NCBI GenBank assembly: GCA_964016885.1
Contig: OZ024742.1
Coordinates: 148,614,001-148,678,000, forward strand
Length of the DNA stretch: 64,000 nucleotides
Source of the DNA: Eledone cirrhosa
Lineage: Eukaryota
Reading direction: 5' to 3'
The notes beneath the pieces were generated by a model. It worked only from the letters and a program-made list of their open reading frames with translations. It had not been told where the DNA came from and did not search any database. The number at the start of each line of letters is the position of its first letter. The first letter of the stretch is position 1. Below are positions 9,413 through 61,660 of this stretch, piece by piece. A program made the translations under genes and the position numbers.

Positions 9413-9898
9413 AAATAAAGTTAAATAAAAATCAAATGATTAAAATTTAGCTTCGTTTATTACTGCTATATATATTTCAGTGACAGCCATCTTTGGCTGT
9501 GACCTCTTCAGGCAGTTTGAATTAGTATGGTATAGACAAGTACATATGTTGTTTAGGTGTATAATATTGTCAATACTCTGATATGCCCAGTTCCTTGTTG
9601 GGTTGTTAATTCACTGAGGAACTGGAGTCATATCAGAGTATTGACAATATTATACACCTAAACAACATATGTACTTGTCTATACCATACTAATTCAAACT
9701 GCCTGAAGAGGTCACAGCCAAAGATGGCTGTCACTGAAATATATATAGCAGTAATAAACGAAGCTAAATTTTAATCATTTGATTTTTATTTAACTTTATT
9801 TTACACTACTCCGGAGTAACCAAACCAACCTGCGCACTTCGTCGAGTGCTCCAGCCTGCATACTGAGGTGTTGGTATACAACCAACATAAACTCAAAA

Positions 9899-10788: not shown

Positions 10789-10790
<2 letters not shown>

Positions 10791-10988
10791 GGAAAATGTT
10801 TGACCCCGACGGCAGAGCTCAAGCCGTTTCGACGGCTATTTCTGTACTAGTCCAGAAATAGCCGTCAAAACGGCTTGAGCTCTGCCGTCGGGGTCAAACA
10901 TTTTCCTATTACCCACTCTACTACCCTAAGTATTGAGTACTCTGGTGCGTTATGGTCCATCTGGTTCCTTACCACACCTCCTTTATTA
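10789..10988 (+). mobile_element. Fold-back half-hammerhead cassette, family A (copy 1)
   Basis: Hairpin 10791-10906 centred on tactagtc; (G)AAA CGGC ttgagctct GCCG TC ggggtc; 80-bp tail; embedded in (TA)n. Confidence 0.85.
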
Positions 10989-13230: not shown

Positions 13231-13395
13231 AGGGAAAACTATGACCACGACGGCAGAGCTCAAGCCGTTTCGTCGAAACGGCTTGAGCTCTGCCGTCGGA
13301 GTCATACTTTTTCCTATTTCCCACTCTACTACCCTAAGTATTGAGTACTCTGGTGCGTTATGGTCCATCTGGTCCTTACCACAATTCCTTTGTTA
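13231..13395 (+). mobile_element. Family A fold-back cassette (copy 2)
   Basis: Homologous to 10789; folds at tttcgtcgaaa with stem II almost absent. Confidence 0.85.
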
Positions 13396-13406
13396 TATAT
13401 ATATAT

Positions 13407-13461: not shown

Positions 13462-13565
<104 letters not shown>

Positions 13566-13568
13566 CAA

Positions 13569-13653
13569 CTGAAGAAGACCGTGCACAAATAAAGCCAGAT
13601 GATGTAGACCCTGAAGAAGACCGTGCACAAATAAAGCCAGATGATGTAGACCC
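13569..13653. repeat. 42-bp tandem duplication
   Basis: ctgaagaagaccgtgcacaaataaagccagatgatgtagacc x2. Confidence 0.9.
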
Positions 13654-18514: not shown

Positions 18515-18715
18515 ATCAGGATGGATTCAGTTTGAAACTGGTTAGACCATTACTCACCAGAGTACTCGATACTTAGGATAGTAGAATATAGTTATATTAT
18601 AAAAAGTCGGGACACCGATGGCTGAGCCCTCGCCGCTTCAACAGCCAGTTCCTGCCTGGAACTGGCTGTTGAAGCGGCCAGGACTCAGCCGTCGGTGTCC
18701 CGACTCTTTATAATA
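18515..18715 (-). mobile_element. Family A-related fold-back half-hammerhead cassette
   Basis: Hairpin centred on acagccagttcc tgcct ggaactggctgt, then GAAG CGGC..GCCG TC; tail ctactatcctaagtatcgagtactctggtg matches family A. Confidence 0.75.
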
Positions 18716-18791
18716 TATATATATATATATATATATACATATCAAACAAAACAAGAGTAGTAAAGACAGGTTTATTTCACCATGATTGTTT

Positions 18792-19593: not shown

Positions 19594-20005
<412 letters not shown>

Positions 20006-23114: not shown

Positions 23115-23116
<2 letters not shown>

Positions 23117-23311
23117 GGAACAAGTAAGACCCCGACGGCTGAGCTCAAGCCGTTTCGACGGCTAATTCTGAGAATTCACAGAATTAGCCATCGAAACGGC
23201 TTGAGCTCAGCCGTCGGGGTCTTACTTGTTCCTATTACCCACTCTACTACCCTAAGTATTGAGTACTTTGGTGCGTTATGGTCCACCTGATTCCTTACCA
23301 CATTTCCTTCG

Positions 23312-23313
<2 letters not shown>
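23115..23313 (+). mobile_element. Family A fold-back cassette (copy 3)
   Basis: Centre ggctaattctg agaattca cagaattagcc; GAAA CGGCT tgagctc AGCCG TC ggggtc. Confidence 0.85.
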
Positions 23314-23367
<54 letters not shown>

Positions 23368-25020: not shown

Positions 25021-25023
<3 letters not shown>

Positions 25024-25192
25024 CGAAGGAAATGTGGTAAGGAACCAGGTGGACCATAACGCACCAAAGTACTCAATACTTAGAGTAGTAGAGTGGGTAA
25101 TAGGAACAAGTAAGACCCCGACGGGTGAGCTCAAGCCGTTTCGACGGCTAATTCGAAACGGCTTGAGCTCAGCCGTCGGGGTCTTACTTGTT

Positions 25193-25196
<4 letters not shown>
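25021..25196 (-). mobile_element. Family A fold-back cassette (copy 4)
   Basis: Reverse-complement match to 23115; stem II partly deleted. Confidence 0.85.
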
Positions 25197-29300: not shown

Positions 29301-29689
29301 ATTGAGTATATGTTGGTTGTTTACCGACACCTCAGTATGCATATTGGAGTACTCGACGAAGTACGCAGGTTGGTTGGTTTACTCCGGAGTAATGTAAAAT
29401 AATTAAGTCAAATATGTAAAATTTGGCTTCGTTTATTATAAATTATAGATATACTACTATATATATTTCGGTGACAGCCATCATTGGCTGTGACCTCTTC
29501 AGGCAGTCCGAATTGGTGTGGGGAAAGACAGGTACACATGTTGTTGAAGTGTGTTTTACTCCGTCAATACATCGATATGTCCAGCTCCTGGTTGTGTTGT
29601 TATTCTTCTGAGGAACTGGAATCATAATTTATAACTTATTCATAATTTATAATAAACGAAGCCAAATTTTATATATTTCACTTAATTAT

Positions 29690-29690
<1 letters not shown>
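29301..29690 (-). mobile_element. Family B hammerhead cassette (copy 2)
   Basis: Homologous to 9413-9900, with a short inverted arm at ~29645-29690. Confidence 0.85.
29453..29507 (-). ncRNA. Type I hammerhead ribozyme
   Basis: actgc CTGAAGA ggtcacagcca atga tggctgtcacc GAAA tatata TA gtagt. Confidence 0.85.
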
Positions 29691-34330: not shown

Positions 34331-34797
34331 TGAATTGCCATACCATAAAAACTGACCTAAAATCCAAATTCATCTTAGTCTTGTATGACCAAACATTTCT
34401 ATTGTCCAAACAAGTATACACCTCACCAACACACACACACATACACAATCACTAATCGAATTAACAGATAAAACAAGTGAAAATAGAGACAACATCACCA
34501 GAACTCACTCATTTGATACAGCACACAACCGAAACGCCCGCAAGACAAACTGAACATCTAGGAATATAACGTAATTTTCTTATTTTGTTTTCATTAGTCT
34601 TAATATCTCCAGCGCCGGTTTAGATCGGTGACCTGTGTGAATAAGTGAACCTTCAATAAATCAATGAATCTCATTAAATCTTTACTCTGCAAACTTATTA
34701 AGCTACATATTCAAAAAGATAGTAGTACATAATATGAGCTTATTCCTTTCACACACACACACACACATACACACACATATATATATATATATATATA

Positions 34798-34875
34798 CAG
34801 GGTGTCCCCAAAAATGTATACACACTTTGATTAGACAGCTGTTGAAGTGTGTATACATTTATGGGGGATATCCTG
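34798..34875. mobile_element. 78-bp Tc1/mariner-type mini-MITE
   Basis: cagggtgtccccaaaaatgtatacacactt ... aagtgtgtatacatttatgggggatatcctg, with TA on both flanks. Confidence 0.8.
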
Positions 34876-34879
34876 TATA

Positions 34880-36736
<1,857 letters not shown>

Positions 36737-37194
36737 TAAAGTTATATTTACAATTGTTGGGTTACAACTAGTAAATATTTATAACTGATATAAAAGCACT
36801 CGACAAATATTTGGAGTATATTTACAATATTAAATAAATGGAAAACTATATTTATAAAACCATATTTATTTCATTATATATATTTCGGGGATATCATATT
36901 AACAATATGCTATGCCTTCATCAGACAAAATACAATATAAACAGTTTTATAGATAAATATATTCGACATACCGTAATAAACATCAACTTCATTTGAAGAG
37001 GTTTACGCTAGCGTAAACCTCTTCAAATGAAGTTGATGTTTATTACGGTATGTCGAATATATTTATCTATAAAACTGTTTATATTGTATTTTGTCTGATG
37101 AAGGCATAGCATATTGTTAATATGATATCCCCGAAATATATATAATGAAATAAATATGGTTTTATAAATATAGTTTTCCATTTATTTAATATTG

Positions 37195-37196
<2 letters not shown>
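36737..37196 (-). mobile_element. Fold-back hammerhead cassette, family E: 374-bp spacer-less palindrome plus tail
   Basis: 187-bp arms 36823-37009/37010-37196 centred on gctagc; tail 36737-36822 carries the bulged stem. Confidence 0.88.
37088..37151 (+). ncRNA. Type I hammerhead ribozyme (mirror copy at 36868-36931, minus strand)
   Basis: attttgt CTGATGA aggcatagcatatt gtt aatatgatatcccc GAAA tatata TA atgaaat. Confidence 0.85.
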
Positions 37197-37293
<97 letters not shown>

Positions 37294-37301
37294 ATATATA
37301 T

Positions 37302-37567
37302 GGGGAGGGTCATATTTGTGTGATATTGCCAGAATTAATAACAGAACACACCCACTGTTTGGTTGGTTTTCGCTTTTCGCTTCTGTATCTTTTATATCGG
37401 CAATCTAATTTATTCGGTCCTCAATGTTGTCAGTCAATGGCAACATTGAGGACCGAATAAATTAGATTGCCGATATAAAAGACACAGAAGCGAAAACCAA
37501 CCAAACAGTGAGTGTGTTCTGTTATTAATTCTGGCAATATTACACAAATATGACCCTCCCCAAGTAT

Positions 37568-37572
<5 letters not shown>
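37302..37572 (+). mobile_element. Fold-back cassette, family F (~125-bp arms)
   Basis: Palindrome centred on ggtcctcaatgttg tcagtcaatgg caacattgaggacc gaat; (TA)n flanks. Confidence 0.75.
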
Positions 37573-37627
<55 letters not shown>

Positions 37628-43288: not shown

Positions 43289-43324
<36 letters not shown>

Positions 43325-43328
<4 letters not shown>

Positions 43329-43740
43329 TAACGAGGAATCAGTAATGCATCAAACCACAATTTATTAACATATTACATATTACATATGTTTTTCCGTAGA
43401 TCAGCTCAAGGCAGGATCTGTTACAGATCGAACCCGACTCTGCATTCGAAGGTTCCTCAGATATGCTTTGTGGATTCTAAGTATACCATCTCACAAAGCA
43501 TATCTGAGGAACCTTCGAATGCAGAGTGGGGTTCGATCTGTAACAGATCCTGCCTTGAGCTGATCTACGGAGAAACATATGTAATATGTTAATAAATTGT
43601 GGTTTGATGTATTACTGATTCCTCGTTATCTATCTATAATATATATACTCTGTTCTTCGCGAGCATCGAGTGCTCAACCGGCATACCGCCTACGGACGCA
43701 TTTAATTGCAGACCTACAACAACTATATTTCTATATACGA
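43325..43740 (+). mobile_element. Fold-back hammerhead cassette, family G
   Basis: Arms 43325-43472/43492-43632; tail with bulged stem at 43646-43672; (TA)n flanks. Confidence 0.85.
43498..43589 (+). ncRNA. Type I hammerhead with an expanded stem II region
   Basis: gcatat CTGAGGA [61 nt including gatctgtaacagatc] GAAA catatg TA atatgt. Confidence 0.75.
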
Positions 43741-47310: not shown

Positions 47311-47313
<3 letters not shown>

Positions 47314-47489
47314 CGAAGGAAATGTGGTAAGGAACCAGGTGGACCATAACGCACCAAAGTACTCAATACTTAGGGTAGTAGAGTGGGTAATAGGAACTAG
47401 TAGGACCCCGACGGCTGAGCTGTGTGTGTGTTTAGTCCAGAATTAGCCGTCGAAACGGCTTGAGCTCAGCCGTCGGGGTCCTACTCATT

Positions 47490-47492
<3 letters not shown>
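47311..47492 (-). mobile_element. Family A fold-back cassette (copy 5), with one arm disrupted by (TG)n
   Basis: Tail nearly identical to 25021; ...gctgagc tgtgtgtgtgtttagtccagaattagccgtcGAAAcggc. Confidence 0.85.
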
Positions 47493-47548
<56 letters not shown>

Positions 47549-47819
47549 TTATATATGGAGAGAGAGGGGGAGAGGGAGACCTGAAGATGAGTAGGCCCCA
47601 CCAGGTTTAAAATGCTTACGAAACACCGTATGTCCATACGACATACGTTGTTTCTTAGGCATTTTAAACCTACGACTCCACAAGCTGTTACAAGTCCAGA
47701 GAGAGAGACAGACAGACAGACAGACAAAGAAGAAGAAAGAGAGAGAAATAGAGTATAGATTTCTAGCATAGCCATGATGCTTCCGATTTAGGGTAAGGTG
47801 TAGTCAATTCAATAAAGCC

Positions 47820-61210: not shown

Positions 61211-61660
61211 ACTAGACCTGAAAAATGCGCAAGCTCAAACGAGCCACAGAATGTTATAATAAACCTTCAAAAGTGTGGGACTAGAGTTGTTGCTCAAAAA
61301 TATTGTAATCATTATCTATCGTACACTCTGTGGCATCCTTTTATAAAAAAAAAAGAGATTCATAACGAACTCCAGACGACACGATAATTATTTAAGTGAA
61401 TTTATAAAATAGAATTCGGTTTAAGTGCATTTCGTATTAATCATTACTAAACATCTAATATGAGATATTGAACATTAGCTTAAATAATTATCGTGTCGTC
61501 TTGAGTTCGTTATGAGTCTCTTTTTTATAAAAGGATGCCACAGAGTGTACGATAGATAATGATTACAATATTTTTGAGCAACAACTCTAGTCCCACACTT
61601 TTGAAGGTTTATTATAACATTCTGTGGCTCTTTTGAGCTTGCGCATTTTTCAGGTCTAGT
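61211..61660. repeat. Long inverted repeat (~185-bp arms, ~82-bp spacer)
   Basis: 61211-61396 pairs with 61479-61660. Confidence 0.9.

Follow-up and report, generated by a model that had tools for sequence, protein, structure and literature searches.

Head-to-head stubs of a Hydra-like Penelope retroelement in Eledone cirrhosa carry junctions that point to priming from both ends of the target

The window analysed here is a stretch of 64,000 nucleotides from the 3.0-Gb genome of Eledone cirrhosa (contig OZ024742.1, positions 148,614,001 to 148,678,000), and it contains six genuine hairpin-shaped insertions. In five of them a Hydra-like Penelope retroelement is represented by its 3' end, lying within (TA)n; the sixth, at 18515, is a diverged relative. 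Each copy consists of an inverted arm followed by the GAAA, stem III, GUC and GGGGTC of a hammerhead, with about 80 extra nucleotides (the tail) on one arm only. Positions within the element are numbered from +1, the A of TTAGT or TCAGT in hammerhead loop II; on this scale GAAA begins at +19, the cut would follow +41, and the 5' strand of stem II lies at about -35 to -28. The features are as follows.

10789..10849, minus strand: copy 1, tailless arm, running from -1/+1 to the inner 3' end (site B) and adjoining (TA)n
10848..10849, no strand: copy 1, inversion centre, a 2-nt TA overlap with both arms extending to -1 of the initiator-like TTAGT
10848..10908, plus strand: copy 1, tail arm, the 3' half of a type I hammerhead
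10859-10864, plus strand: copy 1, tail arm, 3' strand of stem II
10867, plus strand: copy 1, tail arm, the GAAA position, mutated to AAAA here
10887-10889, plus strand: copy 1, tail arm, GUC; the 3' strand of stem I starts at 10890
10909..10988, plus strand: copy 1, tail of about 80 nt, on one arm only, to the outer 3' end (site A)
13231..13397, plus strand: copy 2, centre adjoining GAAA; tail arm to about +15, tailless arm to +18
18515..18724, minus strand: the diverged relative, likewise with two arms and one tail (69% over 160 nt)
23115..23316, plus strand: copy 4, both arms stopping at +5, with an 8-nt filler that resembles the arm itself
25021..25196, minus strand: copy 5, tail arm reaching +7, tailless arm about +18
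47311..47493, minus strand: copy 6, tail arm to about +31, (TG)n filler, tailless arm to -3

A preliminary description made from the letters alone had placed inverted copies at 10789, 13231, 23115, 25021 (minus), 47311 (minus) and, as a relative, 18515; all are present, and their centres do vary from copy to copy. Its account of their content is borne out for GAAA, CGGC/GCCG, GUC and GGGGTC and for the missing 5' core, with the corrections that the copy at 10789 has AAAA and that the copy at 47311, whose tail arm ends inside stem III, lacks the inverted GAAA. In copy 1 the +1 A of the tail arm is 10849 and stem III carries a palindromic loop; a TG repeat borders the relative at 18515 on the left. 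What had been taken for a full stem II with the loop tactagtc or agaattca is the two arms pairing together; the 5' strand and the loop of the parent's stem II are both absent from the window copies, and the centre of copy 1 (10848..10849) differs from the stem II of the parent copies with which it was compared. A 28-mer spanning stem III and stem I has 37,659 exact matches in the genome (reversed control, 0), far more than chance would give, and the window stubs belong to some 17,000 miniature head-to-head insertions of the Penelope-like element.

Other inverted elements share the window. A second inverted family is found at 9413-9801 and 29398-29690; the first of these carries a complete CUGAAGA...GAAA hammerhead-like motif in both arms, which meet about 95 nt upstream of the core, and the same motif occurs at 29502 (minus). 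A third inverted element, at 36664-37301, has CTGATGA...GAAA in both arms (36924 minus, 37095 plus). More hairpin-shaped insertions, the majority bordered by (TA)n, lie at 19612-19829, 37231-37624, 43308-43647, 61211-61660 and 34767-34906, and these are possibly stubs of other Penelope-like families. At 13561-13640 two tandem copies of about 50 nt, starting CTGAAGAAGACC, stand beside an (AG)n run and may represent a junction duplication of another element, and just beyond copy 6 a CTGAAGATGAG...GAAAC motif at 47581 is followed by a small palindrome at 47603-47671.

The coding capacity of the full element lies upstream of the repeat, where one copy (L081) has a 710-aa frame containing, by eye, YRDD and a C-terminal VIYQ...YIG region, with its start codon in a different frame; a single ORF combining reverse transcriptase with a C-terminal GIY-YIG is the organisation of endonuclease-bearing Penelope-like elements (PLEs). 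The predicted protein, P0001, gave no Pfam match at E 0.1. It contains RWR (for RWK), DKT, CNCPDRSIC (CxCx5C), CNLC (CxxC) and CKH (CxH), and this motif set, together with insertion into (TA)n, fits the description of the Hydra clade, whose hallmarks are given as RWK, DKT, a CxCx5C linker, and CxxC and CxH in the endonuclease (Craig et al. 2021, PMC8557442). The layout is likewise that of PLEs, with a pseudo-LTR (pLTR), a partial tandem, an inverted truncated copy and a tail at one end; TA terminates 187 of 196 tails. In the tandems L163 and L308 the tail leads into the next unit, taking in its 5' UTR and ATG, so that the repeat is a pseudo-LTR and the tail is the start of that next unit. L163 is itself a short hairpin insertion whose tail arm enters the first ORF codons and then joins the +1 region of another copy, and we read it as a tandem formed at the same +1 boundary. 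The longest arm measures about 3.5 kb, with a 3' UTR of about 1.4 kb. Two Hydra traits are missing, namely a canonical hammerhead and a length generally under 3 kb, and because of the non-canonical core and the 3.5-kb arm we call the element Hydra-like, an assignment made from motifs and layout.

An intact parent bearing CUGANGA had been predicted from the window copies. Our first search for it, genome-wide for CTGANGA 8-38 nt from GAAAC, returned 51 matches, and the 30 of these that were listed were all rejected as parents, being junction by-products or their neighbours; some matches extended further upstream and led to intact parent copies. These have the order ACCCC, UUGANAA or CUGANAA, G, two unpaired bases, CGGCTA, a loop of 37-39 nt, TAGCCG, TC, GAAA, stem III, GUC and GGGGT, stem II being CGGCTA/TAGCCG enclosing the 37-39-nt loop. 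The prediction of an intact parent was thus right (3,357 arms genome-wide with A8), and its core was not, since the core is UUGANAA or CUGANAA; only 28 arms have G8, with the literal CUGANGA in 6 of them. In a non-random set of 73 parent strings, the features of a type I hammerhead are found (core boxes, three stems, G10.1-C11.1, NUH), with stem III CGGC/GCCG, GUC and stem I ACCCC/GGGGT, and with any of the four bases at position 7. The U3-A8 core is a variant described among PLE hammerheads (PMC4209133), and an unpaired C3/A8 core is present in 15 of the 73 strings of that non-random set. Copies such as L250, L251, L262 and L263, among others, show that an entire subfamily with this unpaired core has been amplified, which suggests that self-cleavage may be dispensable for spread. 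The minimum-energy fold of the parent differs from the hammerhead (z -1.13). Among 150 Rfam matches listed of 253 there were only microsatellite-driven miRNA matches and none to a hammerhead. Arms beginning at the putative cut (+42; 468 matches genome-wide) are the commonest class, although they number only 12 of 86 once 14 internal-deletion rows are left out of 100, beside 4-9 at positions of similar microhomology (by eye), and 5 of 100 tail-anchored copies (listed of 27,123; by eye) have arm ends at +41..+43; these counts hint weakly that some inner ends may also mark the ribozyme cut. Short direct repeats on either side of GAAA and stem III bound recurrent internal deletions (14 of 100 rows listed; also L356 and L357), which could be template slips across hairpins.

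The junctions themselves were surveyed genome-wide. Tail-oriented short inversions number 17,262, with 1,893, 14,485 and 884 at spacers of 0-25, 26-56 and 57-87 nt, and we parsed 160 junctions, 100 listed from the middle class and 30 listed from each of the others; the samples are taken from the top of each listing and come almost wholly from one contig, and the exact patterns favour young copies. Endpoints were taken from strict scoring, a mismatch-tolerant scoring having inflated the -4 class. The outer ends are two and fixed: the tailless arm meets (TA)n at a single offset in 124 of the 160 listed loci and the tail ends at a single offset in 127, other subfamily lengths giving neighbouring offsets. 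The inner boundary is hard, for among the 100 listed middle-class inversions (of 14,485) 193 of 200 arm ends fall at -4..+8 and the furthest arm ends at -4..+2 in 74, and across all 160 listed junctions no more than 10 of 320 arms pass -5. In a tail-anchored sample (100 listed of 27,123), about 10 arms extend at least 97 nt upstream, 71 copies are short and paired with a tailless arm in inverted orientation, and 20 are partnerless by score, some with a visible damaged partner. The centres are strongly non-random, in line with the preliminary description, yet the boundary sits in loop II and not at the foot of stem II, where 3 of 200 arm ends (+11..+18; same 100 inversions) are found. At the centres of the same listed inversions, 55 of 100 have 0-4 nt of microhomology and 45 have fillers, many of them arm-derived or A/T runs.

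We consider it very probable, whatever causes the inner boundary, that the two-armed stubs arise when both ends of a cut target prime, and the fuller account, in which the cDNAs run off a capped 5' end in loop II before being joined, is probable. Both ends of the cut (TA)n target would each prime one cDNA, one starting at the outer site, with the tail, and the other at the inner site, without it; both would likely run off the capped RNA 5' end within loop II, and the free cDNA ends would then be joined head to head, presumably by host end-joining, which would make the centre. Fillers and microhomology are what is expected on joining two free 3' ends. A PLE protein studied in purified form cuts both strands of its target and extends them, with two internal start sites bounding the tail (PMC11167929). 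Of 105 typed pairs, 103 have both arms from one subfamily where 28 would be expected (55 of the 160 junctions were left out as not exactly typed), so that one RNA, or RNAs of one source, would serve both arms, although the same agreement is predicted by snap-back of a single cDNA. Long copies would form when a read-through RNA is primed at its 3' repeat, or when synthesis jumps at the cap.

The base before +1 bears on where the RNA begins. The parent has T or C at -1, and a purine stands there in 6,293 arms, the non-parental base being G in 87 and A in 13 of the first 100 listed. Part of the G excess is due to partner arms that end in C (8/24). After removal of bases that derive from the partner, 16 G and 4 A remain (p 0.012), and 4 of the 160 listed insertions have G on both arms. 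T-runs exceeding the parent's three occur in 20 of 100 arms that reach +1. The TTAGT/TCAGT of loop II resembles the initiator consensus. At full-length L1 5' junctions an extra G has been explained as a reverse-transcribed cap (PMC11702581), and the Penelope of D. virilis has an internal promoter inside its pLTR (PMC2377424). From the non-parental G, the likeness to an initiator and the internal pLTR promoter of D. virilis Penelope we infer an RNA start at +1, and there is a good likelihood, as far as junction sequences can indicate, that the inner boundary is that capped start in loop II. Against a capped start, the arm ends are spread across -4..+8 and not confined to a single base.

That spread, over about 12 nt, would suit a different cause of the boundary, in which both target ends prime and the inner end reflects a stall of the reverse transcriptase, or a cut in the RNA, at the apical hairpin of loop II; this hairpin is conserved, the +1 region forms its 3' strand, and its pairing covaries across subfamilies, with a compensatory change. 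We regard a stall or cut as unlikely, though worth weighing, because the enzyme would already have passed two GC-rich helices, arms that pass the site continue for hundreds to thousands of bases, and G at -1 is not predicted, nor is G enriched beside ends at +2 (5/52).

The preliminary description had proposed that a single cDNA stalls in stem II, folds back on it and primes its own second strand, so that ribozyme structure shapes the insertion. In favour of this, the centres fall between the 5' and 3' strands of stem II, and snap-back junctions are known with R2 proteins, also after full-length cDNA synthesis (PMC11371274). A product of fold-back on stem II would have to retain both the 5' strand from the parent and loop II, and these are at the centre of none of the 160 listed junctions; genome-wide, the pattern for such a product, whose motif detects 23 of 30 parents, has one match, a foreign filler, against the 17,262 short inversions. 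One tailless arm among the 160 listed junctions extends to -34. A self-primed copy cannot exceed its first strand, so snap-back requires the tail arm always to reach further. Among 100 short inversions listed of 14,485, the arm that reaches further is the tail arm in 53 and the tailless arm in 28, with no difference in 19; by at least 3 nt, the figures are 31 for the tail arm and 16 for the tailless. In 24 long head-to-head pairs scored by eye, with centres scattered across 3 kb, the tail arm is longer in 13 and the tailless in 7, in the latter by as much as about 2.3 kb; one pair has equal arms, one has two tails and two are without an assigned longer arm. Each arm often carries sequence missing from the other, and in L055 and L056 an inverted tail piece alone is joined to the tailless arm with no duplication or overlap. 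Since either arm can reach further, a single self-primed cDNA cannot give this pattern; in the window, the longer tailless arm of copy 6 (47311) makes snap-back of its tail arm impossible. Snap-back would also have the copied arm stop at the same inner site nearly every time; 10 of 100 listed centres are palindromic with equal ends and no filler, which also speaks against it, and the same layout occurs with centres kilobases upstream and in the window family at 9413-9801, where a whole hammerhead stands in both arms. As the general mechanism, snap-back on stem II is refuted. Snap-back remains viable for a minority of copies, about 4 of 100 tail-anchored copies (L328, L376, L344 and L370; by eye; 100 listed of 27,123) fitting a fold-back on other small hairpins, namely the apical or the GAAA hairpin, or as short stubs; as the explanation of the family, self-priming is very improbable. 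That the stubs have lost the ribozyme was correctly observed, only the 3' half of the hammerhead being left. We attribute its halving to an RNA that would start inside the hammerhead, and not to folding of the cDNA by the ribozyme.

High copy number and uniform size might suggest that the hairpin of about 200 nt moves on its own, in the manner of a MITE or retrozyme, and that its copies descend from a few masters. In 100 listed copies there are about 61 different centre strings among the 89 parsed (11 unparsed), with the commonest shared across subfamily types, and the outer ends are identical to those of long ORF-bearing copies; since the centres do not follow subfamily descent, we rejected a mobile hairpin, which has scarcely any likelihood left. 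The recurrence of the same centre in several subfamilies upholds the earlier view that the insertions are independent events, and the many centre strings, the common ones crossing subfamilies, indicate that hairpins arise anew each time. A later inversion, in which DNA repair or replication acts on a copy inserted with a single arm, has in its favour the repair-like fillers and microhomology at the centre, and is just as hard to credit, since it leaves unexplained the fixed sites of the tail and tailless ends, the (TA)n on both sides and the G at -1 on either arm.

Priming from both target ends has evidence against it as well: the tail arm is the longer beyond chance (53 vs 28; p 0.007 by the first, mismatch-tolerant scoring), an excess that leaves room for some snap-back or unequal trimming. 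A bolder reading, which we offer tentatively and judge somewhat improbable as a whole, is that the RNA starts inside its own hammerhead and that reverse transcription begins only about 60 and about 140 nt from the cap, at both target ends at once; on this view the roughly 17,000 stubs would be "strong-stop" cDNAs that became captured, and the pseudo-LTR would be restored, in the retroviral manner, by a jump that leads from the cap to the 3' repeat. If the start does lie inside the hammerhead, the 5' copy of the ribozyme would be disarmed. An earlier account of Penelope saw no obvious mechanism for regeneration of the pseudo-LTR (PMC2377424).

Much of what we describe has known counterparts: the element class, the inverted copy, the one-sided tail, R2 snap-back and L1 twin priming. 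In L1 twin priming the second primer is placed at variable internal sites and the arms are not known to overlap, whereas the stubs here have two fixed starts and in most of them some 60 nt are present in both arms. On our reading the two have in common that both target ends prime, and L1 shows its extra G at the full-length 5' junction (PMC11702581). R2 snap-back similarly places an antisense copy at the 5' junction, but the R2 antisense piece, in the junctions described, copies the first cDNA (PMC11371274), whereas the arms here often hold unshared sequence.

Among PLEs, the Hydra clade has the same motifs and inserts into (TA)n, and P0001 resembles, by eye, the Hydra-1_Obim rows of the supplement to PMC8557442, in which two 11-nt motifs of the Eledone family were not found; the element here is longer, with its 3.5-kb arm, and has a non-canonical hammerhead core and a long loop II. 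The typical PLE insertion as outlined in that paper (a pLTR, an adjacent inverted 5'-truncated copy and a tail at one end) has exactly the layout seen here, although its tail is 30-40 nt rather than about 80, and here the insertions are mostly stubs of about 200 nt whose arms share one inner boundary. PLE hammerheads, as characterised by Cervera and de la Pena (2014, PMC4209133), are type I, lie in the pLTR, have a palindromic loop III and include the U3-A8 variant; in the present element stem III has 4-7 bp, loop II has 37-39 nt and one subfamily has unpaired C3/A8. The pairs of PLE hammerheads on opposite strands, 100-700 bp apart, noted in PMC4209133 bear a likeness to our stubs. The closest biochemical parallel is in vitro work on Poseidon PAc of the green anole (Frangieh et al. 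2024, PMC11167929), in which both strands are cut and extended, two starts bound the tail, targets are AT-rich and hammerhead cleavage is not required; inverted copies and run-off at a capped end are not derived in the main text of that study. In the open-access literature we found no proposal for PLEs that combines priming from both ends with run-off at a cap inside the ribozyme, and the formation of inverted and tandem PLE structures is listed in PMC8557442 as unexplained. Set beside these systems, the gain is mechanistic evidence and no new kind of element: the natural record formed by about 17,000 junctions of one family gives coordinates for two priming sites and for a likely RNA start within the ribozyme.
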